From contig OY762721.1 of the NCBI GenBank assembly GCA_963666345.1, positions 3,904,001-3,968,000 of the forward strand: DNA of 64,000 bases, given 5' to 3'. Positions 115 to 19,833 of the stretch are shown here, one piece after another (the stretch's first letter is position 1; each line of letters starts with the position of its first letter). Both the position numbers and the translations under genes were made by a program. Under the pieces are notes generated by a model. It saw only the letters and a program-made list of their open reading frames with translations, searched no databases and was not told where the DNA came from. This stretch comes from Desulfatiglandales bacterium (lineage in GTDB: Bacteria; Desulfobacterota; DSM-4660; Desulfatiglandales; Desulfatiglandaceae).

Positions 115-1083
115 ATGGATGACTTCGAAGTTATTATAATTGGTGGAGGACCAGCGGGATTGACTGCAGGACTGTACGCTGCACGTGCTCATCTTAATAC
201 TGTTCTCCTCGAGGCCAAAGTCCCTAGTGGTCAAGTAGCGATGGCTAATACCATAGAAAACTATCCGGGTTTCCCAAAGGGTATTTCAGGGGTTGAGCTC
301 ATTGATAGGTTTGCCCAGCAGGCATTGGGAGTCGGCTTGACAATTCGTAAATTTAATATTGTAGAAAAAATGGAGCTGAAAAATGGTAGCAAGATCATCA
401 CTACGGGGCGCGATAAATATTCAACGTCAACCCTTATAGTTGCAACCGGTGCTCAGTGGAACAAATTAAATATCCCAGGGGAAAAGCAGCTCGCCAATAA
501 AGGAGTCTCCTATTGTGCAACTTGCGATGGTGCTTTCTTCGAAAATCTGGAAGTAGCTGTAGTAGGTGGAGGAGACACTGCAGTAGAAGATGCCCTCTAC
601 CTATCTAAAATTGTCAGCAAGGTGTTTCTGGTACATCGTAGAGACAACCTGCGCGCTCAAAAAATATTACAGGACAGGGCGTTAAACAATCCTAAAATTG
701 AACCTATTTGGGACACTGTCGTCAGGGAGATAAAGGGTGAGGAAATGGTGCGCAGTTTGCTGCTGCAAAACCTCAAAGATTCCAGCACTGCGGAATTATC
801 GGTCAGCGGTGTTTTTATAGCTGTAGGCCAGCAACCAAATGTGGAATATTTGCGTGGTTTAGTCGATATGGATAAAACGGGCTATATCCTCACTGATGAA
901 CACTGCGCTACCTCTGTGCCTGGGATTTTTGCTGCGGGAGATGTTCGAAAAAAAGATCTTCGGCAAATTTCCACGGCTGTTGGTGACGGTGCCATCGCAG
1001 CAATGGCAGCGGAGAGGTACATCGAGGAGCAGATACAAGATGAAATTGTTAGTCTAAAAGGAATAGAAGCTTCTCTTCTTTGA
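115..1083 (+). CDS. trxB: Thioredoxin-disulfide reductase
   Basis: GGGPAGLTAG FAD motif, GVSYCATCDG redox CxxC, GGGDTA NADPH motif, C-terminal GIFAAGDV. Confidence 0.95.
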   Translation: MDDFEVIIIGGGPAGLTAGLYAARAHLNTVLLEAKVPSGQVAMANTIENYPGFPKGISGVELIDRFAQQALGVGLTIRKFNIVEKMELKNGSKIITTGRDKYSTSTLIVATGAQWNKLNIPGEKQLANKGVSYCATCDGAFFENLEVAVVGGGDTAVEDALYLSKIVSKVFLVHRRDNLRAQKILQDRALNNPKIEPIWDTVVREIKGEEMVRSLLLQNLKDSSTAELSVSGVFIAVGQQPNVEYLRGLVDMDKTGYILTDEHCATSVPGIFAAGDVRKKDLRQISTAVGDGAIAAMAAERYIEEQIQDEIVSLKGIEASLL

Positions 1084-1186
1084 ATTGATTAACCAAGAAA
1101 ATAAGAGGGAATGATATTTATTAGGTGAACAGGGGCCAAATTTGAAACCAAAATACTCTAACTACATTAAAAGGGAGGGAAACGAT

Positions 1187-2134
1187 ATGAAAAAATTTGG
1201 AGCCTTTTTAGTCTTGATATTTTGTTTAGGCCTAATAATTTTGCCTTCAGAGAGAGCATTTAGTAAAGATCTATATGTGTCAATAGCAACCGGAGGGACG
1301 GGAGGAGTCTTTTACCCGGCAGGAGGGGCTATATCCGATTTAATCCGAAAACATTGTCCGTCGGTAAAAGGTGCTACTGCCGAAGTTACAGCTGCGTCTT
1401 TAGAAAATGTAAAACTCGTCAATTCGGGACAAAGTGATTTTGCAATGATGTCTTGGGTCGCTGTTGTATCAGCGGGCATGAAAGACAAAATACCAAACGT
1501 GAGGTCTGTCTTCTTGTTGCACGGAAGTCCACGTCAGTGGATAGTACTCGCAGATAGCAAAATCCACTCTCTTTTGGACTTCAAGGGGAAAAGAGTTGTA
1601 GTAGGTGCTCCCGGAAGTGCTACAGAAGAATGCTCTCGAGCAGTATTTGAATTGATTGGATTGAGTTTTGATGACATTAAGCCAGCATTTCTATCGTTTA
1701 GGGAAGGCGTAGAAGCACTTAAGGATAACCGTGTTGATGTGGCATGTGTCCAAGCGGGGTTTCCAACCTCGACGGTGATGGACATAAACACTGTGCGTGA
1801 TATTAGGCTTATTAACATTAGTAAGAAGAATTTAGAGAAAATAGAGAAGGCATTCCCTTCTATGCCGCCAATTACGATACCAGCGGGAACTTACCGTGGA
1901 CAAGATCAAGATGTTCATACTTGGAACACGCCGGGGCCGATGATTTGTAATAAGGATTTGCCGGAGCAAGCTGTGTATGAAATAGTCAAAGTATTACACA
2001 AGCATAAAGACTGGCTGGTAGAAAATGTACACAGGTTCTGTAAATATTGGGAATTTAGTCCGGTAGTTCAAAAATACTGTCCGCTTCACCCTGGAGCAGC
2101 GAGGTATTACAAGGAAATTGGGTTGTTGAAGTAG
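1187..2134 (+). CDS. TAXI-family TRAP transporter solute-binding subunit
   Basis: Signal peptide, IATGGTGGVFYP, C-terminal PLHPGAARYYKE; ATG at 1187 follows GGGAGG RBS. Confidence 0.92.
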   Translation: MKKFGAFLVLIFCLGLIILPSERAFSKDLYVSIATGGTGGVFYPAGGAISDLIRKHCPSVKGATAEVTAASLENVKLVNSGQSDFAMMSWVAVVSAGMKDKIPNVRSVFLLHGSPRQWIVLADSKIHSLLDFKGKRVVVGAPGSATEECSRAVFELIGLSFDDIKPAFLSFREGVEALKDNRVDVACVQAGFPTSTVMDINTVRDIRLINISKKNLEKIEKAFPSMPPITIPAGTYRGQDQDVHTWNTPGPMICNKDLPEQAVYEIVKVLHKHKDWLVENVHRFCKYWEFSPVVQKYCPLHPGAARYYKEIGLLK

Positions 2135-2558
2135 AAAAACAATGAGGGACACTGGATGTTAGCCTTTCCTATTTGTACTAACGCAGAGCTTTGATGAATA
2201 AAACATATTAATATTATATTAATGAGTTGTTTTTAATAGTGTTCTGTTCGTATTGATGGGTCGATTATTGGGGAATAGTGGCCAAAAGCCTTTTCATGAT
2301 TGGTAAGATTTTCATAAGGATGCGAAAAAGATGGAAAAGGAGATATATGATATCAATTTGTACTAATATAACCAGCGGAAACGCTAAATATTAAATAGTT
2401 AAGCTATCTAATGCTCTATGTCAGTAATTTATAGTTAGCATTTTAATTAAATCAAACAGACCTAAATATGTTAGGAAATAGTATAAATTATCAGAAATAT
2501 AATTGCTTATTGCATTGAATTTAATCTAAAATATTAAACGATATTGAGTTTGAAAACA

Positions 2559-3086
2559 ATGAAGCACTTTATATTTTTATTACTACTAATATTTAGTATA
2601 GCACCAGGCACTAATGTGTTTGCATCAGTGTGTGGCAGCGAATTTCATATAGAACTTATAAACCATTCCAAAGGCAATAGCCTAATATTGTCTATGATAG
2701 CATCTCCCGAGGATACATTCGAACTCAAATACATCCATTCTGTAGAGAAAACGCCTGTTTTTGAAATCTATAACTTTGATAGTAAGGGACAAATCTATCT
2801 AACTGAAACCACCGTGGAATCATCAGGTTACGGCCTGCCGTTGGCTGAAGATGGGGATAAGGTTGTTTATGGTGAAAAAACTATGACAATCACTGGAATG
2901 CACAAGAGAATCGATTGTTTGTTGATGAGGGTGAGTTATTTGAATGATATGTTCCTCTCTTTTTCTCTATGCAGCATTAACCTGCGTGATGTGGCTTGTA
3001 GTGGGGATCAGATTGAAATAAAAATAAGTGTTGCTGTCAAAAGGGAGATTTTGAATGAGGGAAGTTGCCAATACAGGTGGCGGTGA
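2559..3086 (+). CDS. DUF1850-family protein (TAXI-TRAP accessory)
   Basis: FELKYIHSVEKTPVFE and SSGYGLP motifs; lies between the TAXI binding protein and the permease. Confidence 0.85.
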   Translation: MKHFIFLLLLIFSIAPGTNVFASVCGSEFHIELINHSKGNSLILSMIASPEDTFELKYIHSVEKTPVFEIYNFDSKGQIYLTETTVESSGYGLPLAEDGDKVVYGEKTMTITGMHKRIDCLLMRVSYLNDMFLSFSLCSINLRDVACSGDQIEIKISVAVKREILNEGSCQYRWR

Positions 3087-4998
3087 AAACGAACTTGCGT
3101 CAGGAGAAAAGGCTCAGGGTTTTTTGGGAAAGCTTATTTTTCTTTTGGGCATTGGAATGTCTTTGTTTCACATCTACTTCAGCACGATCGGTCTCATTTC
3201 GACAATAAGTGTGAGAAGCGGGCATCTAATTTTTGCCATGGCCATAATTTTTCTCTCTTACCCGCTGACCAAAAAAGGGGGAAAGGTGAGATTTATAGAT
3301 TGGCTATTTGTTTTTTTGGCCTGTATTAGTGGCTTCTATATTATCTTTATGTATCCAGAAATGCGATATCATATTGGAAATTTGACTTTAGCTGACAAAA
3401 TATGTGGCGTTATTTTAATTTTTCTGACTGTAGAAATTACCCGTCGAACCATCGGATTGTCGTTAACTCTCATCGCATTGGCAGCTTTAGCCTATGGTAT
3501 TCTTGGGCCTTATGTGCCCGGTATCTTAGGCCATCGCGGATACAACCTCTCTCGAATTATAAGTCAGATGTATTGTTGCTTGGAAGGCATTTATGGGATC
3601 CCCTTAGGGGTTATGGCGACAATGGTGTATCTGTTTGTTTTGTTCGGTGCATTTCTGGAAAAAACAGGGGCGTCTGAGTTTTTTATTGACCTAGCCTATG
3701 CTCTTACAGGGAAATACGCAGGAGGCCCTGCTAAAACTGCCCTTATTGCCTCTGGCTTAATGGGGTCGGTATCTGGCAGTGCGGTTGCGAATACAGTTAC
3801 AACGGGATCGGTGACTATTCCACTAATGAAATCGGTGGGGTACAAGCCTGAAGTTGCAGGAGGTATTGAAGCTGCAGCATCGACAGGAGGGCAGCTTATG
3901 CCTCCCTTAATGGGAGCAGGCGCTTTCATTATGTCAGAGTACACTGGAATACCTTATTTGACTATTATCACCGTTTCAGTAATTCCTGCCCTACTCTACT
4001 ATTTAACATTAGGATTTTTTGTCCACAACGCCGCAGTGTCTACAGGGTTAAAGGGGATGTCAAAAGAACAGCTTCCTCATTTAGGGAAGGTTTTACTAAG
4101 TGGATGGCATTTGTTTGTTCCTCTTGGAACTCTAATTTGGTTATTGGTAAGTGGATATTCGCCTACTTTCTCTGCTAGCATCTCTATTCTTGTATTAATT
4201 GTCGTAAGCATGTTTCGATCTAGTAGCCGATTAAGTGTACGAGACTTTTTCGAAGCTCTTGCAGCCGCCTCTAAAATGGCTGTACCTATTTCTGCCGCGT
4301 GTGCTGCTGCAGGACTTGTGGTAGGCATTGTTGGTTTAACCGGTCTAGGGCTGAAGTTTTCAACAATGATTCTAGAAATTGCTGGAAATAGTGTGTTTAT
4401 TGCTATGATACTTGTAATGTTTGCTTCGCTCATATTGGGGATGGGACTTCCCGTTACGGCCGCCTATATCATGCTTGCAGTTTTGGCCGTGCCAGCATTA
4501 GTTAAGTTGGGCATTACAATGTTAGCTGCCCATTTAATTGTATTTTGGTATAGCCAGGATTCTAATGTAACCCCACCAGTTTGTCTGGCAGCGTATGCAG
4601 GAGCTGGTATTGCAGAGGCTAATCCAATGAAAACCGGTTTTTATGCCTGGAAGTTGTCTAAGGGTTTATATCTAATTCCTTTCCTTTTTGCCTATCGACC
4701 TGAGATTCTGGTAACTCAAGGATGGTATCAAGCAATTATTATAGGGCTTCAAGGTCTCGTTGCACTAATGGCAGGTGTTGCCGCGTTAGACGGCTTCTTG
4801 TTTGTGCGCTTGAATATTTGGTATAGATTAATTTTAGGTTGTATATGCATAGTTATATTTTGCCCGAGTTTAACCTTGAGGCTTATAGGACTTTTCACAT
4901 TTTTTGGTATTTTTGTGTTTATGTTTATAGTCAAAGCTTATTCAAAAATGAAAGCTGAAAAGGGAGAAGAGTTATATGAGTCTTTAGTTAAACATTGA
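3055..4998 (+). CDS. TRAP transporter fused permease (4TM/12TM)
   Basis: GGPAK, SGSAVANTVTTG, ASTGGQLMPPLMG, VTPPVCLAAYAGA motifs; strongly hydrophobic. Confidence 0.95.
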   Translation: MREVANTGGGENELASGEKAQGFLGKLIFLLGIGMSLFHIYFSTIGLISTISVRSGHLIFAMAIIFLSYPLTKKGGKVRFIDWLFVFLACISGFYIIFMYPEMRYHIGNLTLADKICGVILIFLTVEITRRTIGLSLTLIALAALAYGILGPYVPGILGHRGYNLSRIISQMYCCLEGIYGIPLGVMATMVYLFVLFGAFLEKTGASEFFIDLAYALTGKYAGGPAKTALIASGLMGSVSGSAVANTVTTGSVTIPLMKSVGYKPEVAGGIEAAASTGGQLMPPLMGAGAFIMSEYTGIPYLTIITVSVIPALLYYLTLGFFVHNAAVSTGLKGMSKEQLPHLGKVLLSGWHLFVPLGTLIWLLVSGYSPTFSASISILVLIVVSMFRSSSRLSVRDFFEALAAASKMAVPISAACAAAGLVVGIVGLTGLGLKFSTMILEIAGNSVFIAMILVMFASLILGMGLPVTAAYIMLAVLAVPALVKLGITMLAAHLIVFWYSQDSNVTPPVCLAAYAGAGIAEANPMKTGFYAWKLSKGLYLIPFLFAYRPEILVTQGWYQAIIIGLQGLVALMAGVAALDGFLFVRLNIWYRLILGCICIVIFCPSLTLRLIGLFTFFGIFVFMFIVKAYSKMKAEKGEELYESLVKH

Positions 4999-5148: not shown

Positions 5149-5571
5149 ATGAAAAGATTTATCAACAGCAAGGCAACCCAATTTGCTCTAGTTTCGATGT
5201 TCTTTATTTTGGCGGTAATCTTTCATTGTTATGGAGTGCAAGCAGAAGCTTCGAGTACGCCTGCCTTTACTGGGGATGTGACATGGAAAGTCGATGCCGA
5301 AGTTGAAGCTACTCTTTTAAGCTGCGAGGTAAAGCCTTATAAGGGATGGAAAAAATCCGTATGTCACTTTGAATTAAACATTAAAAACAAGGCTGATCGC
5401 TCTTTGCGCTTTCGTGTAAGAATTATGTTATCAGAAGAAGGACTTGGATGTGGTGGGTTTGTGCCTCGTAAAACTAAACTTAAGCCAGGCGAAGAAATGA
5501 AAGTAGTATATCCTGTGAGATACGAGAAGATACCTGAGGCCATTGTCATTACTGTTAATACAGTAGAATAA
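5149..5571 (+). CDS. Exported hypothetical protein (probably beta-rich)
   Basis: AGGAGG RBS, N-terminal signal peptide, 140 aa. Confidence 0.7.
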   Translation: MKRFINSKATQFALVSMFFILAVIFHCYGVQAEASSTPAFTGDVTWKVDAEVEATLLSCEVKPYKGWKKSVCHFELNIKNKADRSLRFRVRIMLSEEGLGCGGFVPRKTKLKPGEEMKVVYPVRYEKIPEAIVITVNTVE

Positions 5572-5891
5572 AAAACCAGGGTCATGAGATGACAGTTGCA
5601 TCTAGCAAAGTTATCGGTAACATGGTTGACTCTGAAACGCTTTTTATAACCAAGATCAACAAAGCCAGCATAGCCCCTCCAGTCATAACCATGAATGACT
5701 GTTGCATAATTTATGCGTCCTTTGATAGCCTATTGCAGTGTAGTTATGGAATGCTATGATGTTTTGAATACTTGCTTTTAACAGCCACAGCTAAAATTTC
5801 TACTACTTTTTAGTGCCTTGTACTAATCGGGGTATTTTATAAAACGCAACCGGCATGGTTAGCTAAAGTAATAAATACAAAGGAGTTGGGT

Positions 5892-7373
5892 ATGAGCTTA
5901 AAGGAAGTAAAGGAAAATTATGGAATGCTGAAGTTATTCATCAATGGGGAATGGGTTGAATCGGAAGCTACAGAAATAAATCAGACCGTAAATCCGGCGA
6001 CAGGTGAGGTTATTGCGGAATTCCCAACCGCAACCATGAAAGAAGCTCGATCTGCAGTTGATGCAGCGCATGGAGCCTTCAAGGAATGGAGAGAGATGCC
6101 TTTGCGAGATAGGGCAACATTGCTCTTCAACATGCGGGGAAAAGTTGTTGAAAAATACGATGAGCTTTGCCGTATCCTGACTCAGGATCATGGAAGGACA
6201 ATGGCGGAATCAAAAGGTTCGTTAAGCCGCGTTATTGAAAACATTGAGTCGGCGTGCTCTGCGCTCTACGGTTTGGTCAAGCGTAACGAGCATATGGATC
6301 AAGTAGCGACCGGTATTGACCAATATCTTATATGGGAACCGCTGGGCGCATTTCTCATCATAACTCCAAGCAATATTCCTATGCATGCTTGGTCATCTTT
6401 TGTTCCATATGCCATGGCGGCTGGCTGCACGGTCGTGGTGAGTCCAAGCAGACAAGATCCTGTCGCTGGGGAAGCTATGTGCAAAGTGGCACAAGAGGTG
6501 GGCTTCCCCCCTGGGGTGATAAACATGATCCACGGTGGAAGGGATATTAACAAGGAAATACTCCTCCAGCCTGAAATTAAAGGGGTTGGGTTTATAGGCT
6601 CTAATAGGGCAGGGTGGGAGCTGTTTGAATTATGCGGGAAACTTGGAAAGACTTCATCTATGAACGGTAATGGTAAAAACCACTGTGTTATTATGCCAGA
6701 TGCCGACGTTGATCAATCTGTTGAATGGCTTGTCAGGGCATGCTTTGGATTGACAGGACAGCGCTGTCTCGGTGTCGATAACGTAGTCATCATTGGGGAC
6801 ATCTACGATGAGGTAAAAACTAAGTTTAGAGAGGCTGCCGCAGCTATGAGGCTCGGATATGGACTTGATGAGGAAACTACACTTGGGCCAATGACCACTC
6901 AGACCGGAAAAGAGAAAGTGATCAACTGGATTGAGCAATCAGTCGCCGAAGGCGCTAAAGTATTACTTGATGGAAGAAATGTGCAGGTTAAGGACTATTC
7001 AGATGGATACTTTATTGGCCCCACTATCCTTGAAGAGGTGAATGTTGATATGTCGATGGCCAAAGAGGAGGCTTTTGGACCAGTGGCGAGCCTGATCCGA
7101 GGAGATAGCCTCGATCAGGCGATAGAATGGATTAACAGCAAGACAAATCTTGGACACTCTGCTTCCATAATGACCCAGGATGGTAAGAAGGCGCGTAAGT
7201 TTATCAGGGAGGTTAACGTGGGCAATGTTGCAGTGAATGTGGCCGTTGCTCAACCTTACGCATTCTTCCCACTGGGGTCTAGGAGAGAATCCTTTTTGGG
7301 TACTGCTAAATCGAGAATGTCTTCTATGAGGATGTTTATGGATGAAAAAACGGTTGTTTCGCGCTGGATATGA
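5892..7373 (+). CDS. Aldehyde dehydrogenase, (methyl)malonate-semialdehyde dehydrogenase-like (CoA-acylating type)
   Basis: GQRC catalytic Cys, EEAFGPV; GNGKNH replaces the ELGGK of hydrolytic ALDHs; AGGAG RBS before ATG 5892. Confidence 0.85.
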   Translation: MSLKEVKENYGMLKLFINGEWVESEATEINQTVNPATGEVIAEFPTATMKEARSAVDAAHGAFKEWREMPLRDRATLLFNMRGKVVEKYDELCRILTQDHGRTMAESKGSLSRVIENIESACSALYGLVKRNEHMDQVATGIDQYLIWEPLGAFLIITPSNIPMHAWSSFVPYAMAAGCTVVVSPSRQDPVAGEAMCKVAQEVGFPPGVINMIHGGRDINKEILLQPEIKGVGFIGSNRAGWELFELCGKLGKTSSMNGNGKNHCVIMPDADVDQSVEWLVRACFGLTGQRCLGVDNVVIIGDIYDEVKTKFREAAAAMRLGYGLDEETTLGPMTTQTGKEKVINWIEQSVAEGAKVLLDGRNVQVKDYSDGYFIGPTILEEVNVDMSMAKEEAFGPVASLIRGDSLDQAIEWINSKTNLGHSASIMTQDGKKARKFIREVNVGNVAVNVAVAQPYAFFPLGSRRESFLGTAKSRMSSMRMFMDEKTVVSRWI

Positions 7374-7422: not shown

Positions 7423-8367
7423 TTGAATAAAATCCTCAAATGTGACAAGGGAGTAAAAGAATTGGGAGATGTAATTGGGTTTATTGGTCTCGGCATAATG
7501 GGGATGCCTATGTCGAAGAGATTGCGAGAGACTGGTTATGAGGTGATTGTTTACGATATATCGTCAGAGCCTGTAGAAAAACTGGTTGAAGTGGGTGCTA
7601 AGAAAAGTGCGTCTCCAAAAGATGTCGCATGTCGAAGCGATGTGGTGATATCAATGCTACCAACGCCTACTATTACAAAGAAAGTCATCTTTGGGGAAGA
7701 TGGTGTCAATGCCGGGATTCGGAGAGGCTCAGTGTACATTGATATGAGCACATCTGACCCTTTGCTGACGAGTCATATTGCTGAAGTATTTGAAGAGAAA
7801 GGTGTGCGAACGTTAGATGCGCCAGTAAGTGGCGGAATAAAAGGAGCTAGAGAGGGAACCTTGACAATCATGGTTGGGGGATGTCGGGCTACCTTCGAGA
7901 GAGTTAAAGATGTATTGTCTTGCATGGGTAAGAATATCATGTACACGGGTAGGGTAGGATCTGCGCATACACTTAAAGTTATCAACAATATGTTATTAGC
8001 AATGAATATGGCCGCCACTTCTGAGGCTCTAGCCTTGGGGGTAAAAGCTGGGATTGAACCGACGATGATGCGAGATATTATGTCTGTTAGCTCGGGCAGA
8101 TCCTATGCCTTAGAAGTAAAAGTTAGAGATTTTGTTTTTCCACGAAACTTCGCTCCGGGTTTTACGGTAGATCTTCTAAACAAAGATATAGATATTGCTT
8201 TGAATCTTGGGAGAAGATTAGGAACCCCAGTGCTATTAGGAAACTCGATCAGACAATTGTATGAATCTTTAGTGGCTAAAGGGCAAGGGGGGAAGGATGC
8301 TTCTATCATTATAACCTTTTTTGAGGAAATGATGCATACGAAAAAAATCAAAGGCAAACCAAGTTAA
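7423..8367 (+). CDS. NAD(P)-dependent beta-hydroxyacid dehydrogenase (3-hydroxyisobutyrate dehydrogenase / tartronate semialdehyde reductase family)
   Basis: GFIGLGIMG, DAPVSGG, catalytic K in LKVINN, KDI motif; true start may be TTG 7462. Confidence 0.9.
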   Translation: MNKILKCDKGVKELGDVIGFIGLGIMGMPMSKRLRETGYEVIVYDISSEPVEKLVEVGAKKSASPKDVACRSDVVISMLPTPTITKKVIFGEDGVNAGIRRGSVYIDMSTSDPLLTSHIAEVFEEKGVRTLDAPVSGGIKGAREGTLTIMVGGCRATFERVKDVLSCMGKNIMYTGRVGSAHTLKVINNMLLAMNMAATSEALALGVKAGIEPTMMRDIMSVSSGRSYALEVKVRDFVFPRNFAPGFTVDLLNKDIDIALNLGRRLGTPVLLGNSIRQLYESLVAKGQGGKDASIIITFFEEMMHTKKIKGKPS

Positions 8368-8587: not shown

Positions 8588-9865
8588 ATGAAACTGAGTA
8601 GAGAACAAGAAGACATGCTGGCAGGAAATGAAGGCTATGGTGTGCAAAAGGCCATGGAGATCCTTACAGCTATGGGAGATGCAGTTGGAGCGGAAAAGAT
8701 GGAACGGATCACCTATGCCCACCTTATGCCCCCGGATCTCATGTTTTTCCCTTATGGTAAGCAGGGCGCATGGGCACATGACATGACTGCAGAGTTAACA
8801 AAAGACCTCAAAGGTTTCAAAGTTATCACAACTGTGGAACCTAAATTCTGTGATCTTTGTATTGCAAAGGACCTTCAATTCACTGATGACATAATAGAGG
8901 AAATGCACAGAATCCAAGGAAATGCCGTGAACTTCTATGAGCGGCTCGGAATTATGACTACCTATACTGCGATGCCTTTTCTTTATTACCAGACCAAACT
9001 AGGAGACCACGTAAGCATTTCTGAGTCAATTGCCACTCTGTGGTCCAATACTATGTTCGGCTCCCGTTGCGAGCGTGACGATGGTGTAACTTCTTTAGCT
9101 GCTGCCATAACTGGTTATATACCCCTATCGGGTGCCCATTTAGATGAACAGCGTTATGCCGAAGTGGTTATAAGACCTGGAGAAGATATCAGCTTTGCCA
9201 AGTTCAACGATGCGGACTGGGATGCCTACAGCCTAGCCGCTAGCCGCAAATGCAAGGAAAAGAGGCCCGTATTTGTAGGGTTACCACCTAAGCCCGGAAT
9301 CACGGCGCTGAAGCACCTTTTGTCGGTTATCGCAGTGGAATCGGGACTTGCTGTCATGCACATCGTAGGCATCACGCCGGAAGCTCCAACTCTAGAAGCT
9401 TCTTTGGCGGGGCACTCGCCCTTGGATGAGTGCATTGTCGGACAAAGGGAAATTGATGAAGCTTACCAGCTTGCCAATACGGCAAAGGGAAGAGACATTG
9501 ACTTCATTCTGCTTGGGTGTCCACATGTAACTATGAGTGAGATGAGAGACTTGGCTCAAACACTTGACGGAAAGAAGCTAAGCAAAGATGTCACCATGAT
9601 CGTCTCCACCACTCGGCTCCTGCTGGAACAGGCAGAGGATATGGGGTATGCCGATATAATCCGCAATGCCGGAGGCATCATGACCAGCGACATGTGTATT
9701 GCCTTTGCTGGATCTAATGTTAAAGGAACCATCGCAACCAATTCCATTAAGGCAGTGTTTTTCTATGCTGGTTTCTGTGCAAGCGCCCCGAACGAAGTGA
9801 AATTTGGAAGCATGACGGAATGTGCTCGATCCGCAGTGAGCGGGAAATGGGAAGGGAGGTTTTAA
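8588..9865 (+). CDS. Aconitase X catalytic subunit (DUF521), divergent
   Basis: MKLSREQEDMLAG start, KAMEIL, AAAITG, HIVGITPEA, GCPH, TNSIKA. Confidence 0.88.
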   Translation: MKLSREQEDMLAGNEGYGVQKAMEILTAMGDAVGAEKMERITYAHLMPPDLMFFPYGKQGAWAHDMTAELTKDLKGFKVITTVEPKFCDLCIAKDLQFTDDIIEEMHRIQGNAVNFYERLGIMTTYTAMPFLYYQTKLGDHVSISESIATLWSNTMFGSRCERDDGVTSLAAAITGYIPLSGAHLDEQRYAEVVIRPGEDISFAKFNDADWDAYSLAASRKCKEKRPVFVGLPPKPGITALKHLLSVIAVESGLAVMHIVGITPEAPTLEASLAGHSPLDECIVGQREIDEAYQLANTAKGRDIDFILLGCPHVTMSEMRDLAQTLDGKKLSKDVTMIVSTTRLLLEQAEDMGYADIIRNAGGIMTSDMCIAFAGSNVKGTIATNSIKAVFFYAGFCASAPNEVKFGSMTECARSAVSGKWEGRF

Positions 9866-9868
9866 TTT

Positions 9869-10282
9869 ATGGCCGTATTTAAGGGAAAGAGTGTCGTGAA
9901 AATGGGAGTGGTTGAAGGAGAGGCTTTGGTAACCAAAGATTTGGTTGCTTTCTGGGGAGGAGCGGACTGGGAAACTGGAGAAATTGTGGAAGTAGGCCAT
10001 GACGCAAGAGGTAAGATAGTGGCTGATAAGATATTGGTTTTTCCTATTGGTAAGGGAGGAGGAGGTGAAACCTTTGGTTATTACTATCTGGGCCGTAGCG
10101 GCAAGGCGCCGAAGGCCATTGTGTGTAATCGTTCTCTAGGCCAGACCGTAGCCGGAGCTTTGCTTATTGGAACCCCCATGGTGTATGGTTTCCAGGAAGA
10201 TGTCACTGCCGAGATTGAAAGCGGCGATTGGGTTCGAGTAGATACCGAAAATGGTCAAGTGGAAGTTTTGAAAAAAGGATAA
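9869..10282 (+). CDS. Aconitase X swivel subunit (DUF126), divergent
   Basis: VEGEALVT..FWGG.D.ETG.I...GH, KILVFP.GKG, KAPKAIV; adjacent to DUF521 gene. Confidence 0.88.
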   Translation: MAVFKGKSVVKMGVVEGEALVTKDLVAFWGGADWETGEIVEVGHDARGKIVADKILVFPIGKGGGGETFGYYYLGRSGKAPKAIVCNRSLGQTVAGALLIGTPMVYGFQEDVTAEIESGDWVRVDTENGQVEVLKKG

Positions 10283-10286
10283 GGAT

Positions 10287-10595
10287 ATGCCAATTGATGC
10301 AATAATGATAAAGCCTAGTGACAATGTCGCTACAGCTCTAAGGGAGCTTTCACCCGGTGATATTGCCAGAGTTGGGATTGGAAAGGATACGAAGGAAATT
10401 ACCATAAGGGATAACATAGCTTACGGTCATAAGTTTGCGACTAGGGATATTGTGCAGGGTGAGCATATTGTAAAGTACGGGGAAATCATGGGCTGTGCAA
10501 CTTTAGATATCGGTGCTGGTTTTCATGCTCACATTCAGAATATAGAAAGCTTAAGAGGAAGAGGCGATCTTGGAGATGCGAGGATTAAAAAATAG
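10287..10595 (+). CDS. UxaA-family dehydratase small subunit (SAF domain)
   Basis: DNVATAL, GHKFA, IVKYGE, HIQN..SLRGRGD. Confidence 0.9.
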   Translation: MPIDAIMIKPSDNVATALRELSPGDIARVGIGKDTKEITIRDNIAYGHKFATRDIVQGEHIVKYGEIMGCATLDIGAGFHAHIQNIESLRGRGDLGDARIKK

Positions 10596-10596
10596 C

Positions 10597-11757
10597 ATGG
10601 AATTTATGGGCTACAGGCGAGCTGATGGGCGCATTGGTACACGAAACTACGTGGGGATAATTTCGACCGTAGTTTGCGCTAATGAAGTTACCGATTCAAT
10701 ATCAAGGGCAGTTGCCGGAACTACTGCTTTTTTACACCAGCAGGGGTGCTGTCAGACACCGGTTGATATTCAAAGGGTAAATGACACCCTGACCAACCTT
10801 GGAAAAAATCCCAACTTGGCTTCTGTACTCCTGGTGAGCCTGGGTTGCGAGAGCACTGAGGTGACTGCGGTAGAGGAAGCAATAGCTGGGACAGGAAAGC
10901 GTGTTGAAACAGTAGTAATCCAGGATATAGGAGGCTCTGCAAGAACCTTAGCAGAAGGTTCGCTAATTGCACAGGACATGGTTCAGGAAGCGTCTAGCCT
11001 CAAGCGTGTAGCTTGCCCCTTGTCGGAACTCATGCTGGGACTCAAATGCGGGAGCTCGGATACTACATCCGGGCTTGCACCTAATCCTGCAATGGGAATT
11101 GCATCAGACATGATCGTGGAACAGGAGGGTACCTCTATACTAGGCGAGGTAACCGAATTCATAGGGGCTGAGCATATCCTTGCCGGACATGCTAGAGATG
11201 AAAAAATTGCAGGTCAGATTCTCTCTCTGGTGGAACGCATGGAGGCAAGGGCTAAATCCGTGGGAGCTGATATTAGGGGCGGTCAGCCGACTGGGGGAAA
11301 TATCAAGGGAGGGCTTACCACCATTGAGGAAAAATCCCTGGGTGCCATCGCCAAGGCAGGTAATGCTCCGATTCAGGCAGTGTATGAATACGGAGAAATA
11401 CCAAAGGTCAAGGGCCTAGTGGTTATGGATTCTCCGGGAAGGGAACCTGAAATTCTAACAGGCCTTGCGGCGGCCGGATGCACGGTAATTGCTTTTGCCA
11501 CAGGTCGGGGAGCACCTCAGGGATTTCCTTTCGTGCCTGTGATTAAAATAACGGGCAATCCCTTGACTTGGGAAAAACTTCGCGATCATATGGACCTGAA
11601 TGTAAGTGGTTTGATGGAAGGAAATAGTTCACTTCCGAAGGAAGGCGAGAAGATTTTCAATGAAATTCTTGCGGTTGCCTCTGGAAAACTCACCAAGGCT
11701 GAAATCTCCGGGTACACTAAGGCTATGGATATATACATGGTTGGACCGGTGATTTAA
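10597..11757 (+). CDS. UxaA-family (altronate/galactarate-type) dehydratase large subunit
   Basis: GYRRADGRIGTRN, HQQGC, SLGCE, KCGSSD, GNIKGGLTTIEEKSLGA. Confidence 0.92.
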   Translation: MEFMGYRRADGRIGTRNYVGIISTVVCANEVTDSISRAVAGTTAFLHQQGCCQTPVDIQRVNDTLTNLGKNPNLASVLLVSLGCESTEVTAVEEAIAGTGKRVETVVIQDIGGSARTLAEGSLIAQDMVQEASSLKRVACPLSELMLGLKCGSSDTTSGLAPNPAMGIASDMIVEQEGTSILGEVTEFIGAEHILAGHARDEKIAGQILSLVERMEARAKSVGADIRGGQPTGGNIKGGLTTIEEKSLGAIAKAGNAPIQAVYEYGEIPKVKGLVVMDSPGREPEILTGLAAAGCTVIAFATGRGAPQGFPFVPVIKITGNPLTWEKLRDHMDLNVSGLMEGNSSLPKEGEKIFNEILAVASGKLTKAEISGYTKAMDIYMVGPVI

Positions 11758-11907
11758 GAATCGTTTCAATCACTATCTAGCGACTTTTGAATTGTAAAAT
11801 ATTATGACCAGTATTTATTTACACATACACGTGAATTTTTTTAAGGGCGCATTCATATTGGTAGATAACAGCTGCGCCCCGGTTAACCTGTCAAAGTGGA
11901 GCGATCA

Positions 11908-13161
11908 ATGGCCTACCCGAGCATGATAATGCTTCGTCAACAGCTGGACAATACTGAGGTGGGTGATGTCCATGCCGCAGTTAAAGAAGAGCTGAAACGA
12001 ATTAATCTCCCCGCACGCATCACTCCTGACTCCAAGGTGGCTATCACCGCTGGTAGCCGCGGGATTACCGACATTGTTCCCGTGCTGGGTGCTATTGTTA
12101 GGGAGGTGAAAGAAATTGGGGCGCAGCCCTTCCTGGTGCCTGCGATGGGCTCCCACGGCGGTGCCACTGCAGAAGGCCAGCTGGAGATACTCAAAGACTA
12201 TGGCATTACCGAGCAAAGCGTGGGTGCATCCATAGTTTCTTCCATGGAAGTTCTTGCCATCGGGAAAACCGAAGACGGAATATCTGTTATGATAGACCGA
12301 AATGCCGCAGACGCTGACCACATAATAGTCGTAAACCGGATTAAGCCTCATACCGAGTTCCAGGGAAGTGTCGAGAGCGGCCTAATGAAAATGATGGTGA
12401 TTGGGCTTGGTAAGCACGAGGGAACAATCATTGCACACGACTATGCTGTCAAATATGGATATGAGCACACTATCCTCTCCATCGGCCAGTGCATCCTGGA
12501 CAACGCCCCCATAGCATGCGGTGTGGGAATAATAGAAAACGGCTATGGTAAAACCGCTCGAATTGCAGCAGTCTCGCCCGAGGTTTTTGCTGATAGCGAA
12601 AGAGCCCTCTTGACAGAAGCAATTAAAAAAACTCCCAAACTGCCCTTCAATAAAATAGATGTTCTCATAGTTGATGAATGCGGAAAAGAAATCAGCGGGA
12701 CCGGTATGGACACCAAGGTTGTGGGCCGTATAATGAATATCTATGAACTGGAGGTTGATAAACCTTCAATAACACGTATCATTTTGAGGGATTTAACTCA
12801 AAAGACTCATGGGAACGCTTTGGGTATGGGGCTTGCTGATTTTATAACAAGAAGGGCTGCTGACAAAGTTGATTTCCGTTCGACCTATGTTAACTGCGTC
12901 ACTGCCGTGACCCCGGAAAAGGGACGTCTACCAATAGTATGTGAGACAGACCGTGATGCAATTGACTTTGCTATCGCAACTGCAGGCCCGGTTGACGCCA
13001 AGAGCCTTAGGCTTGTCTGGATCAAGAATACCTCCAAACTGGGAGAGATGTTTGTTTCAGAGGCCCTTATGGCTGTTGGCAAGAAAATGAGAGGGATTAC
13101 CCTGTACGGAGAACCGTGCACCATGGACTTCGATGATGAAGGAAATCTCAAGAGGCCCTGA
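11908..13161 (+). CDS. Lactate racemase (LarA N-terminal / DUF2088)-like protein
   Basis: AITAGSRGI, PAMGSHGGAT, NRIKPHT, ESGLMKM, GKEISGTGMD motifs. Confidence 0.8.
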   Translation: MAYPSMIMLRQQLDNTEVGDVHAAVKEELKRINLPARITPDSKVAITAGSRGITDIVPVLGAIVREVKEIGAQPFLVPAMGSHGGATAEGQLEILKDYGITEQSVGASIVSSMEVLAIGKTEDGISVMIDRNAADADHIIVVNRIKPHTEFQGSVESGLMKMMVIGLGKHEGTIIAHDYAVKYGYEHTILSIGQCILDNAPIACGVGIIENGYGKTARIAAVSPEVFADSERALLTEAIKKTPKLPFNKIDVLIVDECGKEISGTGMDTKVVGRIMNIYELEVDKPSITRIILRDLTQKTHGNALGMGLADFITRRAADKVDFRSTYVNCVTAVTPEKGRLPIVCETDRDAIDFAIATAGPVDAKSLRLVWIKNTSKLGEMFVSEALMAVGKKMRGITLYGEPCTMDFDDEGNLKRP

Positions 13162-13399: not shown

Positions 13400-13906
13400 T
13401 TAGTTTAGCTGGCATTTCTGAGGCATCGCCCTTGTTGATTTATTTACCAATTTGACCACCTTGTCGTTACCCATGGGGAGAGCCTCGACCTCTGTGGCCT
13501 TTTTCTTGAGAAGTTTATATTCCCTCTCAAATTCCCGCTGTATAAAGGGGACCTCCTTTTCCGTAATCAAGCTCAACCTGTGGGGACCTAACACATTGTA
13601 GACCCTAGTTGCGATAGGGTCTTCAAGTTGCTCTATCCGTTTAGATCCTGTCAGCACATCTTGGAATTTCATCCATGCGGTAAGGGCTTGATCATCGTTT
13701 GATTCCAAGAAATCCATTAAGTCAGGAAGCAGGTCTTTATAAAACCGCCCCTTTCGGATTACCGATCCAAACGCTGCCGAGCAGGCTTGATCATCATAAG
13801 GTGATAGGGAATTCCAAATAAGTTTTGCCATTATTTGAGATACCTCAACTTGATATTTTTCTGAAACCAATGTGATAAATTGCTTGAACATCTTTTGATC
13901 TTTCAT
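13400..13906 (-). CDS. Phage hypothetical protein coupled to the replication initiator (possible loader/accessory)
   Basis: ATGA overlap with the upstream initiator gene; position typical of phage replication modules. Confidence 0.6.
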   Translation of the reverse strand: MKDQKMFKQFITLVSEKYQVEVSQIMAKLIWNSLSPYDDQACSAAFGSVIRKGRFYKDLLPDLMDFLESNDDQALTAWMKFQDVLTGSKRIEQLEDPIATRVYNVLGPHRLSLITEKEVPFIQREFEREYKLLKKKATEVEALPMGNDKVVKLVNKSTRAMPQKCQLN

Positions 13907-14748
13907 GATAGCTCCAATCCCTTGAGGTTATTTATTGTGTCCACGGTCTTGTTTGAGAAGATACTCCGTGGCTTAACTGCATCGAACCACCGGCCTTGAT
14001 TAATGTATGTCGATGGATTTGGGATGTATCTCCCGTTTTCCTTGGTCCAGTCATAGCTCTCTTTTTGAGCTTCAAGTTTATCGAGAATATCCTGAAGAGA
14101 GGGCATCCTATTTTTCTTCTTAGGAACGCACCAACATTTGTATGCATATTCCTTCCCAACTTTTTTGGGATAGGCCTCCCAGAAAGTTTCAAAATCTTTC
14201 GAGTAAAAAGTCTGGGGGTTTGGGGGTGTAGTAGTTATATCAGTATTAGTATTAGTATCTTTAGTAGTGGCACGCCCCCTGTCCCCCTTCTGTCCTCGAT
14301 CTGTCCTTACCATGTCCTTTCTCTCTTCTAATCCATTGATATCATTAAAATTCGCCTGCCCCTGATCTGCCCCTGATCTGTCCAATATCTGTCCAATATC
14401 TGTCCTTTTTTCTTCAGCCTCATTTTTCCATGATAAATCCTTGTTATCAATAAGCTTTGGCTGAGCTTTGCAGCTTGAACTTGGTAGGATCGAGAGCGTT
14501 CCTTTCTGATTTTGCTTATAGCGTGATTCATCGGGATAGGTGATTTCTACGTTGATGCGGTTGAGAAAATTCCGCGCTTTATTCCTGGACCATCTCCAGC
14601 ATTTTGCCAACCCGGCTATTGTGACATTGTTGTCAGCATCAAAATCAAGCTGGAGAGAATACATAGCTTCCAACTCTGTATATCCCCGATCAAGAGGTAA
14701 TGAGCTCCGCAGGGCTTTAGATATCGGCACCCAATTCCCCGATCTCAT
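13903..14748 (-). CDS. Phage replication initiator / replisome organizer-like protein
   Basis: N-terminal HTH-like LAKCWRWSRNKARNFL, low-complexity linker carrying iterons, FETFWEAYPKKVGK and YIPNPSTYINQGRW motifs; ATG 14748 overlaps the stop of the upstream small ORF. Confidence 0.8.
   Translation of the reverse strand: MRSGNWVPISKALRSSLPLDRGYTELEAMYSLQLDFDADNNVTIAGLAKCWRWSRNKARNFLNRINVEITYPDESRYKQNQKGTLSILPSSSCKAQPKLIDNKDLSWKNEAEEKRTDIGQILDRSGADQGQANFNDINGLEERKDMVRTDRGQKGDRGRATTKDTNTNTDITTTPPNPQTFYSKDFETFWEAYPKKVGKEYAYKCWCVPKKKNRMPSLQDILDKLEAQKESYDWTKENGRYIPNPSTYINQGRWFDAVKPRSIFSNKTVDTINNLKGLELS
14279..14405. repeat. Two blocks of 11-bp-period iterons (putative phage origin)
   Basis: 14356-14405: CTGCCCCTGAT x2, CTGTCCAATAT x2, CTGTCC. 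14279-14317: CTGTCCCCCTT, CTGTCCTCGAT, CTGTCCTTACC, ATGTCC. AT-rich tract at about 14229-14267. Confidence 0.75.
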
Positions 14749-14921
14749 TCCGCCCTCCACCAATCTGGAGAATTGCGATGGCTTTCCTCTCTCCTTACAT
14801 CTTTTGCTTCCAGGCACCGCTCGCAAAAAAAGCGGTCGATACGATAGAAAAGGTAATGGTAGGGTCCATCTGCCCTCATTCCATAGGCAGTCTCGATGTG
14901 AATAAATTTATGGTCAGCCAT
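14745..14921 (-). CDS. Small phage-like protein with CxxC (58 aa, below the ORF-track cutoff)
   Basis: Manual translation MADHKFIHIETAYG...RIDRFFCERCLE...PDWWRAE*; AAGGAGG RBS; ATGA coupling to the initiator gene. Confidence 0.7.
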   Translation of the reverse strand: MADHKFIHIETAYGMRADGPYHYLFYRIDRFFCERCLEAKDVRREESHRNSPDWWRAE

Positions 14922-15670: not shown

Positions 15671-17188
15671 ATGCTCACAGTGGAAACAATCCGTAAGATA
15701 CGATTAGCTGTTCTCAGAGATGGCAAATCCATACGTCAGACAGCGAAGGATCTGCGCCTTAGCAAAAATACAGTAAAAAAGGCGATAAGGAGCGGAGAAA
15801 CATCTTTTCAGTACGAACGAAGCAACCAGCCGAGACCCAAGCTAGGACCGTTTATAGACATGCTGAAAGGCTTTCTGGAAGAAGATGAGAAACTGCCCAG
15901 AAAACTGCGCAGGACAGCCCAGATACTTTTTGAAGAGCTGCAACTCAACGGCTACGAAGGTGGCTATGACAGCGTAAGGAGATATGTTCAAAGATGGCAC
16001 CAGGATCAAAGGAGCTTGCCAAAGGAGGTATTTATACCTTTGGTATTTGATCCTGCAGAAGCCTTTCAGTTTGACTGGAGTCATGAGTGGGTAGATCTGG
16101 ACGGAAGCAGAGTAAAGGCAAAGGTCGCACATATAAGGTTATGTCACAGCCGCTACTTCCTTTGTATTGCCTACCCCAGAGAGACCCAGGAGATGGTGTT
16201 TGATGCCCATATCAGGGCCTTTGAGTTTTTTGGAGGAGTTTGCCGTAAAGGCATATATGACAATCTCAAAACAGTGGTTAACAAGATCCTGGGAGGAAGG
16301 GAAAGACAGTTCAACAGCCGCTTCAGCCAACTGTGTTCCCATTATTTATTTGAACCGGTAAGCTGCACCCCTGCTGCAGGCTGGGAAAAGGGTCAGGTGG
16401 AAAACCAGGTAGGTGTGGTCAGAAGGAGATTTTTCACTCCCCGAATCAAGGCCAGGGATTTCACACACCTAAACGAGCTGCTTAGAGAACAATGCATCAC
16501 CTGGGCAAAGACCCGTAAGCATCCAACAATATCTGATAAGACGGTTTGGCAGGTCTACAGTGAAGAGAGACCCTATCTGATAAATCTACCACCTCCCTTT
16601 GATGGATATGCACAACGTCCAGCCAGGGTTACCCCCAGCTCACTTGTAACCTATGACCGGAACCGATACAGCGTTAATTGCAGCCAGGTGGGTAAAGCGG
16701 TCTATATGAGAGTATATGCCGATCGGATAGTGATAGTAAATAACGGTTGTATCGTAGGAGAGCATGATAGGCATTTTGGAAAGAACAAGACTATTTTTAA
16801 TCCCTGGCATTATGTCCCGGTCCTTGAACGTAAGCCCGGGGCTCTCCGTAATGGAGCACCCTTTAAAGACTGGCAACTTCCTCATCCTGTGCAAGGCGTC
16901 CTTAATGGGCTTCAAAACCGTTTTTCCGACTGGGACCGTCAGTTTGTGGCCATTCTAAATGCTGTCCCTTTCTACGGACTTGAGGCTGTAAGTAAAGCCT
17001 GTAAGGAGGCCCTAGAGATCAGGGCCGTAAGTAAAGAGGTGGTTCTCAATCTTTTAAACAGGGATCAGGATCAGGATTGCACGCCTGATTTGGGTATCCC
17101 CTCCCATCTGATTCTCAAGCAAGAGCCCATAGCAGACTGCCACCGCTATGAACGTTTGGTAAGGGAGGGATACCATGCTGCGCAATGA
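15671..17188 (+). CDS. istA: IS21 transposase
   Basis: N-terminal HTH; DDE motifs [19 protein letters not shown]. Confidence 0.95.
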
Positions 17189-17906
17189 TATCATGGACCA
17201 TATGGAAAAACTAAAGTTGCGGGGTATGCAGTCCATTTATGATGAAGTTGTCTCCAATGGACGCAAGAGCCATTCAACGCCTGAAAAGGTAATCCTGGAA
17301 CTGCTCAAGGCTGAAGCTGCCGAAAGATATATAAGGAGTATCCGATATCGTATGGGACAGGCCAGGTTTCCTGTCCTTAAAGATATCGATGGCTTTGATT
17401 TTAACGGGGCCTGTGTTGATGAAGCCCAGATTAGGTCTATTTATCAGGGTGATTTTATAGCCGAACATATCAACCTGATTTTTGTAGGTGGCACCGGTAC
17501 GGGCAAAACCCATTTAGCCATAACTATAGCGGCCCAGGCCATAAGGAATGGCAGGAAGTGCAAGTTTTATAACCTGGTGGATCTGGCAAATGAGCTTGAG
17601 CAGGAAAAAATGATTGGATTGGCCGGCAAAATCACAGCAAGACTACTTCGATTTGATCTTGTGGTCCTCGATGAACTGGGTTATCTGCCTTTTTCCAAAA
17701 ACGGCAGTCAACTGCTCTTTCATCTTATATCAAAACTCTACGAACAGACATCCATAGTGATTACCACCAACTTGACCTTCGGTGAATGGCCCCAAGTCTT
17801 TGGAGATAAAAAGATGACTACGGCCATGCTTGATCGATTGACTCATCATTGTGAAATTATAGAAACAGGTAACGAAAGCTGGAGAATGAAACACGCAGCT
17901 TCATAG
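17175..17906 (+). CDS. istB: IS21 helper ATPase
   Basis: GGTGTGKTH Walker A, LDELGY Walker B, DRLTHH. Confidence 0.95.
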
Positions 17907-19424: not shown

Positions 19425-19833
19425 GATCGGGAATAAAAAAATCAACCTTGCCGTTCAGTTACATCACCTGAAAAGGTTATTTCCCCGGTCACATGTCCGG
19501 ATTCAACGTAATTGCCTGGTTTGGCATGGTGATTTGATGCCAACGGTACTTAGTCAAGCATACACAGTCAGATTGAGCTATAAGCTTGCCAAGTCCCCTC
19601 AAGTTAATGTCCTGAAGCCTGAATTAATTATTCCTGAAGGCAAAAGGCTCCCTCATACCTACCCTGGAAAGAGTCTTTGTCTATATTATCCAGGAATAGA
19701 TGATTGGCGCGGGGATATGCTTCTTGCTGAAACAGTCATTCCCTGGATTTCAGAATGGCTTTATTTTTATGAAATCTGGCTTGTCACCGGCGAATGGTAT
19801 GGTGGAGGTATACATCCCAAAAAGCAGTTTTGA
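19414..19833 (+). CDS. Stand-alone prokaryotic E2 (short type II CBASS ancillary protein)
   Basis: LPHTY...LCLYYP (catalytic Cys), IPWISEWLYFYEIWLVTGEWYGGGIHP; ATG overlaps the CD-NTase end. Confidence 0.85.
   Translation: MASKIGNKKINLAVQLHHLKRLFPRSHVRIQRNCLVWHGDLMPTVLSQAYTVRLSYKLAKSPQVNVLKPELIIPEGKRLPHTYPGKSLCLYYPGIDDWRGDMLLAETVIPWISEWLYFYEIWLVTGEWYGGGIHPKKQF

Follow-up and report, generated by a model that had tools for sequence, protein, structure and literature searches.

The 64,000-nucleotide stretch of DNA analysed here (the window; positions 3,904,001 to 3,968,000 of contig OY762721.1, Desulfatiglandales bacterium assembly GCA_963666345.1) encodes an aconitase X (AcnX) gene pair in which the catalytic serine and one iron-ligating cysteine of the solved AcnX enzymes are replaced by glycine and alanine. 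The large subunit, comprising domains 1-3 (425 amino acids; 8588..9865, + strand), and the small, or swivel, subunit (137 amino acids; 9869..10282, + strand) are encoded by two intact open reading frames (ORFs) with 3 bp between them, and both exceed the Pfam gathering thresholds for the family (PF04412, 307.6 bits against a cut-off of 31.5; PF01989, 69 bits against 27). The motifs quoted in the original prediction, a short note made from the sequence letters, are present as written, and the two ORFs adjoin as it stated.

The predicted model of the large subunit (pLDDT, predicted local distance difference test, 95.4) finds its best structural match in 7CNR/7CNP, with template modelling (TM) scores of 0.83-0.85, and that of the small subunit (pLDDT 89.6) matches chain B of 7CNR with a TM score of 0.89. 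Separate and adjoining large- and small-subunit genes constitute the AcnX type II architecture, and the two products would be expected to form a heterodimer, as in TkAcnX. A weak search for fused forms among longer proteins returned two matches, one with a frame-broken C-terminus (P0391) and one of a distant type (P0392), neither of which is credible, and matches in the ESM Atlas were to generic AcnX clusters only. The models NF051439 (for comparison with type I/IIa) and NF003046 (for comparison with type IIb) gave 175 and 93.9 on the pair, against cut-offs of 700 and 163, and a scan for promoters and terminators gave counts not above those of shuffled sequences.

Active-site residues compared with the solved enzymes

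Residue equivalences were taken from local alignments to PDB chains, gap-free at the key sites and with published numbering corrected for tag offsets, and are given below for the Thermococcus kodakarensis (Tk) and Agrobacterium (At) enzymes. Conservation was counted in the homologues closest by similarity, namely the best 120 of 220 small-subunit matches and the best 120 of 497 large-subunit matches, query included. Gly64 of the small subunit (10058..10060, + strand) aligns with the catalytic serine, Tk Ser62 or At Ser70, which is the proposed general base (PMC8184944), and the position is glycine in 120/120 homologues. Ala128 of the large subunit (8969..8971, + strand) aligns with the iron ligand Tk Cys110 or At Cys273, referred to as the site-A cysteine, and the position is occupied by Ala in 119 homologues, Pro in one, and Cys in none. 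The loss of the swivel serine and of the TCxPY cysteine had both been predicted, and the alignments to the solved enzymes bear this out: no equivalent serine or cysteine is found, and close homologues do not keep GKGS or TCxPY. The further statement that the TCxPY cysteine is an Fe-S ligand in the two-subunit type is correct but too narrow, as the one-subunit type also uses it as a ligand (PMC8184944).

Glu146-Ser147 (9023..9028, + strand), with Glu in 117 and Asp in 3 of 120 homologues and Ser in 120/120, corresponds to Tk Glu129-Ser130, positions that bind the substrate hydroxyl and carboxylate in the solved enzymes (PMC8184944). Two iron-ligand positions are also kept, Cys311 (9518..9520, + strand; Tk Cys283; 120/120) and Cys370 (9695..9697, + strand; Tk Cys342 and At Cys508; 119/119), as is Lys388 (9749..9751, + strand; Tk Lys361 and At Lys530; Lys in 119/119). 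Four residues after this lysine, Phe392 stands in place of the tyrosine of the solved enzymes (Tk Tyr365, At Tyr534), with Phe in 117, Trp in 2, and Tyr in none of 119 homologues, and Ile148 replaces Tk Ser131 (Ile in 113/120). In the small subunit, Trp29 is invariant (120/120) and corresponds to At Trp35, which touches the pyrrolidine ring (PMC8184944). The two At residues that hold the ring nitrogen, Asp203 and Thr72 (PMC8184944), are represented by Met47 and Gly66.

Conservation and distribution of the clade

Adjacent large- and small-subunit genes were compared in 158 pairs, drawn from 160 fetched loci, a second pair from the same genome, and the window itself, with window duplicates L001 and L004 and the duplicate L003 left out. 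Gly64 is present in 89 of these pairs, and in all 79 that cover position 128 the residue there is Ala; of the remaining 69 pairs, 68 have Cys at this position and one does not cover it. The two losses thus co-occur in 79/79 locus pairs in which both positions are covered and either change is present. All four Ala codons are used at position 128 (79 loci) and all four Gly codons at position 64 (89 loci). The ratio of nonsynonymous to synonymous substitution rates (dN/dS) has a median of 0.099 for the large subunit (275 pairs) and 0.146 for the small subunit (412 pairs), with a maximum of 0.33; these values come from non-independent pairs with dS of 0.05-1.5, and between the window and its nearest loci dS has reached saturation. 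In a tree of 52 selected large subunits, which does not contain the two solved enzymes, the clade has a support of 100/100 and a long stem. Because of the 120/120 Gly, the 0/120 Cys, the codon use, the dN/dS values, and the monophyly, the changes are neither private to this genome nor a sign of decay, and the pair belongs to a conserved monophyletic subfamily under purifying selection, as had been predicted.

The 89 clade loci form 46 clusters at 90% identity, and the named records come from Thermodesulfobacteriota, Chloroflexota, Atribacterota, Bacillota, and Ca. Moduliflexota, which are intermixed in the tree. The clade is rare: the window genome is alone in carrying it among 401 genomes sampled from its phylum, it occurs in 2/41 relatives (window genome included), and it occurs in 2/301 genomes of a sample centred on G001, one of these being the centre itself. 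From the mixing of phyla and this rarity, the subfamily appears to have spread horizontally among bacteria.

The sister group in the tree is a clade of Dehalococcoidia, in which the serine, the cysteine, and the Asn of the solved enzymes are kept, with Asp at small-subunit position 67, in 12/12 loci (L024-L026, L028-L031, L157, L159, L161, L162, L164). These sister loci have three Cys, with one more Cys next to site A, and they neighbour PrpD-like, short-chain dehydrogenase/reductase, cyclase, and TatD-like genes. The window genome also has a second AcnX pair (contig 4143410-4145052; L002, L167) that keeps the serine and the site-A cysteine. Pairs of this second type, also found in L106, L107, and L278-L283, have Gly at the Glu129 position, His at that of Asn79, and Arg at that of the lysine, and in L106 and L107 they lie just upstream of the cassette of the clade.

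Other lineages were covered by a second sample of 60 loci, 3 of them from the clade and one locus fetched twice. The catalytic serine is absent from 10/57 non-clade small subunits of this sample, so the loss of the serine is not unique to the clade; it is also lacking from that column in 28/150 family representatives, of which 3 probably belong to the clade and some are misaligned. The site-A cysteine is kept in 56/56 non-clade large subunits covering the site, and within the samples examined its loss is seen only in this clade. The small subunits without the serine include those of a separate AcnX lineage, another rewired type (L259, L260, L263, L265, L267, L271), which lacks the serine and the GCPH cysteine, keeps the site-A cysteine, and has Asp for Glu129.

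Candidate replacement residues

The extra cysteines that the original prediction had pointed out were rejected as replacement ligands. The two in KFCDLC, Cys88 and Cys91, are found in 75/118 and 13/119 homologues, and the one in SRCER, Cys161, in 117/120, with Thr or Ser in the other 3 and Thr in a nested branch. Cys222 (90/120) was rejected likewise, as was Cys412, which is conserved (119/119) but is also found in AtAcnX, an enzyme with three ligands of its own.

An acidic residue following the lost serine had also been predicted. It is present but lies three residues on, at Glu67 of the small subunit (10067..10069, + strand), the third residue of a predicted helix (65-76), which aligns with Tk Gly65; the homologues divide almost evenly at this position, with Asp in 61/120 and Glu in 59/120. 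A role for it as a stand-in for the serine finds no support as a feature of this clade, since Asp and Glu interchange and the sister clade has Asp alongside the serine and the cysteine; Asp/Glu67 is kept as a possible water relay only.

Glu84 of the large subunit (8837..8839, + strand) is the stronger candidate, as a new ligand or base; this change, like that at Phe392 and the recurrent UxaA linkage, is absent from the original prediction. Glu84 aligns with Tk Asn79 and At Asn233, and the position is Glu in 113 and Asp in 4 of 117 covered homologues. In the solved enzymes, the Asn at this site forms a hydrogen bond with the Glu in contact with the iron-bound water or substrate hydroxyl (PMC8184944), and that Glu is retained in the clade as Glu146. 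Both of its hydrogen-bonding partners in the solved enzymes, an Asn and a Ser, are altered in the clade, to Glu84 and Ile148, respectively. In 3 related sequences, which form one nested branch and represent a single event, Asp occupies position 84 and position 146 alike.

Further clade-specific acids are Glu162, Asp165, and Glu251. The last is not supported as a replacement ligand, being Met or Lys in 3/120 homologues. It may match a conserved Glu of aconitase; the homoaconitase alignment reached domain 3 only.

Gene neighbourhood

The AcnX pair is followed by a split UxaA/GarD dehydratase, whose N-terminal (SAF-type) subunit (10287..10595, + strand) matches the N-terminus of TIGR03248 weakly (E 3.8e-7) and has no Pfam match, and whose catalytic subunit lies at 10570..11757 (+ strand), where the true start may be the ATG at 10597. 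Four Cys of the catalytic subunit are conserved (Cys36, Cys60, and Cys93 in 59/60, Cys160 in 60/60) and align with Cys of GarD (6U7L). Four such Cys are described for all UxaA/GarD members except SuyAB (PMC6336799), so their presence points to the sugar-acid type rather than to SuyB, and a sulfolactate lyase (SuyAB) identity was rejected.

UxaA genes are found in 67/89 clade loci, against 0/12 sister loci and 0/52 other AcnX loci, most of the latter being from related actinobacteria, and the SAF-type subunit is present in 65/89 clade loci. Where at least 900 bp are available downstream, SAF/UxaA genes follow the pair directly in 56/68 loci, and they do so in 36/46 clusters at 90% identity. Pairwise identities of UxaA and AcnX correlate across 48 loci (Spearman 0.66; pairs not independent). 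UxaA does not need the AcnX pair, because relatives of it stand without one: a paralogue of 74% identity in the window genome, and relatives of 79% and 68% in G145 and G359, neither of which gave a clade member when their sample was searched with the small subunit.

Thirteen regions were fetched around UxaA genes without an adjacent AcnX pair, and 50 neighbour ORFs were scanned, 40 of them from 108 listed. Aldehyde:ferredoxin oxidoreductase is encoded in 8/13 of these regions, and a dehydratase of another family lies upstream in 3/13 (enolase type in L233 and L237; IlvD/EDD in L238). In L231-L237 and L240, the split UxaA stands beside aldehyde:ferredoxin oxidoreductase, and several of these loci also have 2-oxoacid:ferredoxin oxidoreductase or pyruvate phosphate dikinase.

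Downstream of UxaA, the window encodes a nickel-pincer (LarA) isomerase of group 22 (11896..13161, + strand; NF052515, 512.5 bits against a cut-off of 400), and a LarC-type nickel-insertion gene is present elsewhere in the genome. LarA genes of three sequence groups occur in 31/89 clade loci, and characterised LarA enzymes invert C2 of 2-hydroxy acids (PMC7583248, PMC11770544). Other neighbours in clade loci are aldehyde:ferredoxin oxidoreductase (18/89), tripartite ATP-independent periplasmic (TRAP) permeases (11), FGGY kinases (9), aldolases (HpcH type in 3/89; 2-keto-3-deoxy-6-phosphogluconate, KDPG, type in L138), and, often, GntR-type regulators; single loci encode glycerate kinase (L120), phosphoglycerate mutase (L009), or a 2-oxoacid oxidoreductase domain (L006). 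Mycofactocin-type genes (MftF glycosyltransferase, radical SAM/SPASM protein, electron transfer flavoprotein) precede the cassette in L007, L090, L093, and L126. No mevalonate genes were found among the neighbours examined.

Upstream of the pair lie genes for a 3-hydroxyacid dehydrogenase of the tartronate-semialdehyde reductase/3-hydroxyisobutyrate dehydrogenase family (7423..8367, + strand), which is below curated cut-offs and present in only 2/89 clade loci, and for a methylmalonate-semialdehyde dehydrogenase-like aldehyde dehydrogenase (5886..7373, + strand; 396 bits against a cut-off of 448.5), which is local context only. A TAXI-type TRAP transporter (binding protein, DUF1850, and fused permease; 1142..4998, + strand) is likewise local context and may belong to an upstream reductase operon: genes for glycine/sarcosine/betaine reductase component B, a DUF5940 protein, and thioredoxin reductase (contig 3899500-3904000, L168, and window 115-1083) run into it on the same strand. 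Between the transporter and the aldehyde dehydrogenase, a 140-aa ORF (window 5149-5571) looks hydrophobic at its N-terminus and matches no family in Pfam or NCBIfam. Just past the LarA gene, two ORFs on the - strand (window 13400-14826) have no family match; profile scans also gave none for the longer one, which by eye we take to resemble a phage- or plasmid-type replication initiator. Farther on (window 18216-19833 and 15671-17906), a cyclase like those of cyclic-oligonucleotide-based antiphage signalling systems (CBASS; PADLOC, 488 bits) and then an E2-like protein (163 bits) are encoded right after an IS21-family transposase pair, with no effector identified among the ORFs scanned.

Proposed function and alternative explanations

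The favoured reading, which is given a probability of about 0.45, is that this AcnX subfamily uses iron to dehydrate a small 2,3-dihydroxy carboxylic acid, working beside the UxaA/GarD dehydratase of the neighbouring genes. The residues kept in the clade are those that bind the carboxylate and the C3-OH in both solved enzymes, and Ser147, Lys388, and Glu146 would bind the carboxylate and the leaving hydroxyl in the same way. The metal may be one Fe or a cluster of the [2Fe-2S] or [4Fe-4S] kind; its ligands would be Cys311 and Cys370 together with Glu146, Glu84, or both, and it would itself bind the leaving hydroxyl. Glu84 could accept the C2 proton; alternatively, a water occupying the space opened by the Ser-to-Gly change could do so and pass it on to Asp/Glu67. 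Glu84, which is placed by sequence equivalence, is put forward as a candidate for these roles. In the corresponding pathway, aldehyde oxidation would yield a sugar acid, LarA would interconvert its C2 forms, and the two dehydratases, differing in the stereoisomers or chain lengths they accept, would each form a 2-oxo acid. For the substrate, our guess is a C3-C4 acid, for instance glycerate, a tetronate, or tartrate.

There is precedent for a metal site with fewer cysteines, as type IIa enzymes are active with no more than two candidate Cys, and for iron ligation by a glutamate, as Glu292 is a direct ligand of Fe in the crystal of At S449C/C510V, which contains a Glu-ligated [2Fe-2S] cluster (PMC8184944). 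A more specific form of the proposal describes a rebuilt core with a two-Cys, Glu-ligated iron and a carboxylate or water base replacing the alkoxide of the swivel serine, in a sugar-acid (possibly glycerate or tetronate) dehydratase spread horizontally among anaerobes as a four-gene UxaA cassette; this fuller version is slightly less probable than the general one.

Several observations weigh against the dehydratase reading. No conserved third Cys was found among the best 120 large-subunit homologues, and the At mutant with Glu-ligated iron is itself inactive (PMC8184944). The losses seen in the clade are damaging in the enzymes studied: At S70A is almost inactive, At C273A is colourless, and the At Ala mutant of the tyrosine that is gone in the clade is almost inactive (PMC8184944); Aeropyrum pernix (Ap) C122A retains less than 4% activity and loses the cluster absorbance (PMC10040528); and in the Pseudomonas enzyme S66A is inactive and C275A is not expressed (PMC5144071). 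The genomic context is also imperfect. The pair lacks an adjacent UxaA in 12/68 loci, the loci with aldehyde:ferredoxin oxidoreductase come from only 6/46 clusters, and the clues to glycerate are single loci. Moreover, the 3/13 AcnX-free regions with a second dehydratase all have a more distant UxaA (48-53% identity), and the two closest AcnX-free regions (L229 and L230; 79% and 68%) have neither a second dehydratase nor aldehyde:ferredoxin oxidoreductase.

The pair may instead encode an active metalloenzyme that is not a parallel dihydroxy-acid dehydratase and acts on a more acidic substrate needing no alkoxide base, for example in a second dehydration of the 2-keto-3-deoxy acid produced by UxaA, or in the isomerisation or hydration of an unsaturated acid. 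This is considered unlikely, at a little over half the weight of the dehydratase reading. The loss of a strong base together with the gain of acids (Glu84, Glu162, Asp165, Glu251) would fit weaker-base chemistry, although Glu251 is not invariant, as noted above. A step downstream of UxaA is often unassigned: BLAST of the ORFs at the 89 clade loci found no protein of the fumarylacetoacetate hydrolase (FAH) family, which appeared only in sister locus L025, and a scan of 76 further neighbour ORFs gave no match to FAH or DapA at E 1e-12. The other, fused UxaA of the genome adjoins an FAH protein. Many loci, however, are short contigs, so that an absent downstream enzyme means little, some clade loci carry the aldolases listed above, and no further step is needed if the product of UxaA is pyruvate or oxaloacetate.

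A catalytically dead but selected partner, which would bind a sugar acid, carry iron or a cluster for UxaA, or act as a sensor, is somewhat less likely again. The serine, the site-A cysteine, and the tyrosine, each essential in the studied enzymes, are all gone, and a non-catalytic role keeps its share of the probability because each loss alone inactivates those enzymes (PMC8184944, PMC10040528). Purifying selection cannot separate catalysis from binding, and the linkage is mostly one-way, with the pair usually beside UxaA. However, close UxaA relatives stand without the pair, the pair is sometimes away from UxaA, new invariant acids occupy active-site positions, and the operons often have GntR-type regulators of their own. 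Different metal ligation or chemistry, as in the original prediction, is what we infer for the clade.

It is improbable that the pair is a hydroxy-imino or hydroxy-amino acid dehydratase resembling type I/IIa AcnX and tied to the upstream glycine/betaine reductase genes. The invariant Trp29 corresponds to the ring-contacting At Trp35, and the same strand carries genes for reductase component B and thioredoxin reductase a short way upstream, but Met47 and Gly66 replace the ring-nitrogen binders, the NF051439 score is far below its cut-off, and reductase genes are not among the recurrent or scanned neighbours of other loci. Decay through private changes, for which it could be said that the lost residues are essential elsewhere and that the second AcnX pair of the genome keeps the serine and the site-A cysteine, is practically excluded by the 120/120 and 119/120 conservation, the four codons in use at both sites, the dN/dS of 0.10-0.15, and the intact genes in several phyla.

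The serine base is the sole catalytic residue common to the solved AcnX enzymes and aconitase, and the site-A cysteine is common to both solved types (PMC8184944); a clade without both is therefore a natural experiment on how far the metal site and the base of this fold can change, and it bears on the open proposal that a Glu may serve as a cluster ligand (PMC8184944). The linkage to UxaA/GarD and the recurrent LarA narrow a substrate screen to 2-hydroxy sugar acids, and one of the uncharacterised bacterial AcnX types thereby becomes directly testable. If the core is indeed rebuilt as proposed, the family would gain a further metal-site design and a new function; a pair without catalytic activity would instead amount to a bacterial pseudoenzyme of the aconitase fold that has a conserved partner. 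The wide variation of AcnX active sites and the recurrence of the serine loss in other lineages temper the interest.

Comparison with known systems

The literature search returned nothing describing the clade or its operon, most subscription papers being outside its reach. Among characterised systems, one of the closest is AcnX type IIb, the mevalonate 5-phosphate dehydratase of T. kodakarensis (PDB 7CNR/7CNS) and A. pernix (PMC8184944, PMC10040528), with which the window pair shares two subunits, the same fold (TM 0.83 and 0.89), and the positions of Cys283, Cys342, Glu129, Ser130, and Lys361. It differs from type IIb in the changes Ser62 to Gly, Cys110 to Ala, Asn79 to Glu, and Tyr365 to Phe, so that the three Cys ligands (Cys110, Cys283, and Cys342) are not all found. 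The phosphate-binding Ser50, Asn53, and Asn79 are absent, the phosphate-binding loop is swapped for a longer invariant segment (residues 45-62), and the context in the window is that of sugar-acid catabolism. With type I/IIa, the cis-3-hydroxy-L-proline (C3LHyp) dehydratases, the pair has in common the fold and the positions of Trp35, Glu292, Ser293, Cys508, and Lys530; the positions of Ser70, Cys273, Cys510, Asp203, Thr72, and Tyr534 are not kept. The two Cys of the clade are those of site 1 and site B, whereas the two of type IIa are those of sites A and B.

AcnX types IIc-IIf, the uncharacterised bacterial subclasses of PMC8184944, resemble the clade in being two-subunit bacterial forms that lack the residues marking the two known activities. 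The main text of that paper, on which this comparison is based, reports no loss of the serine or the site-A cysteine in these types, and the clade may overlap with them. The four-Cys UxaA/GarD enzyme of the cassette recalls the UxaA/GarD operons with a second dehydratase or LarA (PMC6336799, PMC7583248); for LarA, a linkage of 100% to COG2721 is given for group 5, and one of 30% to IlvD/EDD dehydratases for group 22 (PMC7583248). The searchable supplements of PMC7583248 contain no AcnX COG (COG1679, COG1786) and no entry for 'aconitase', and, unlike the operons described there, the companion here is an AcnX pair. The subfamily is thus AcnX by profile and fold, yet fails the defining residues of both characterised types.

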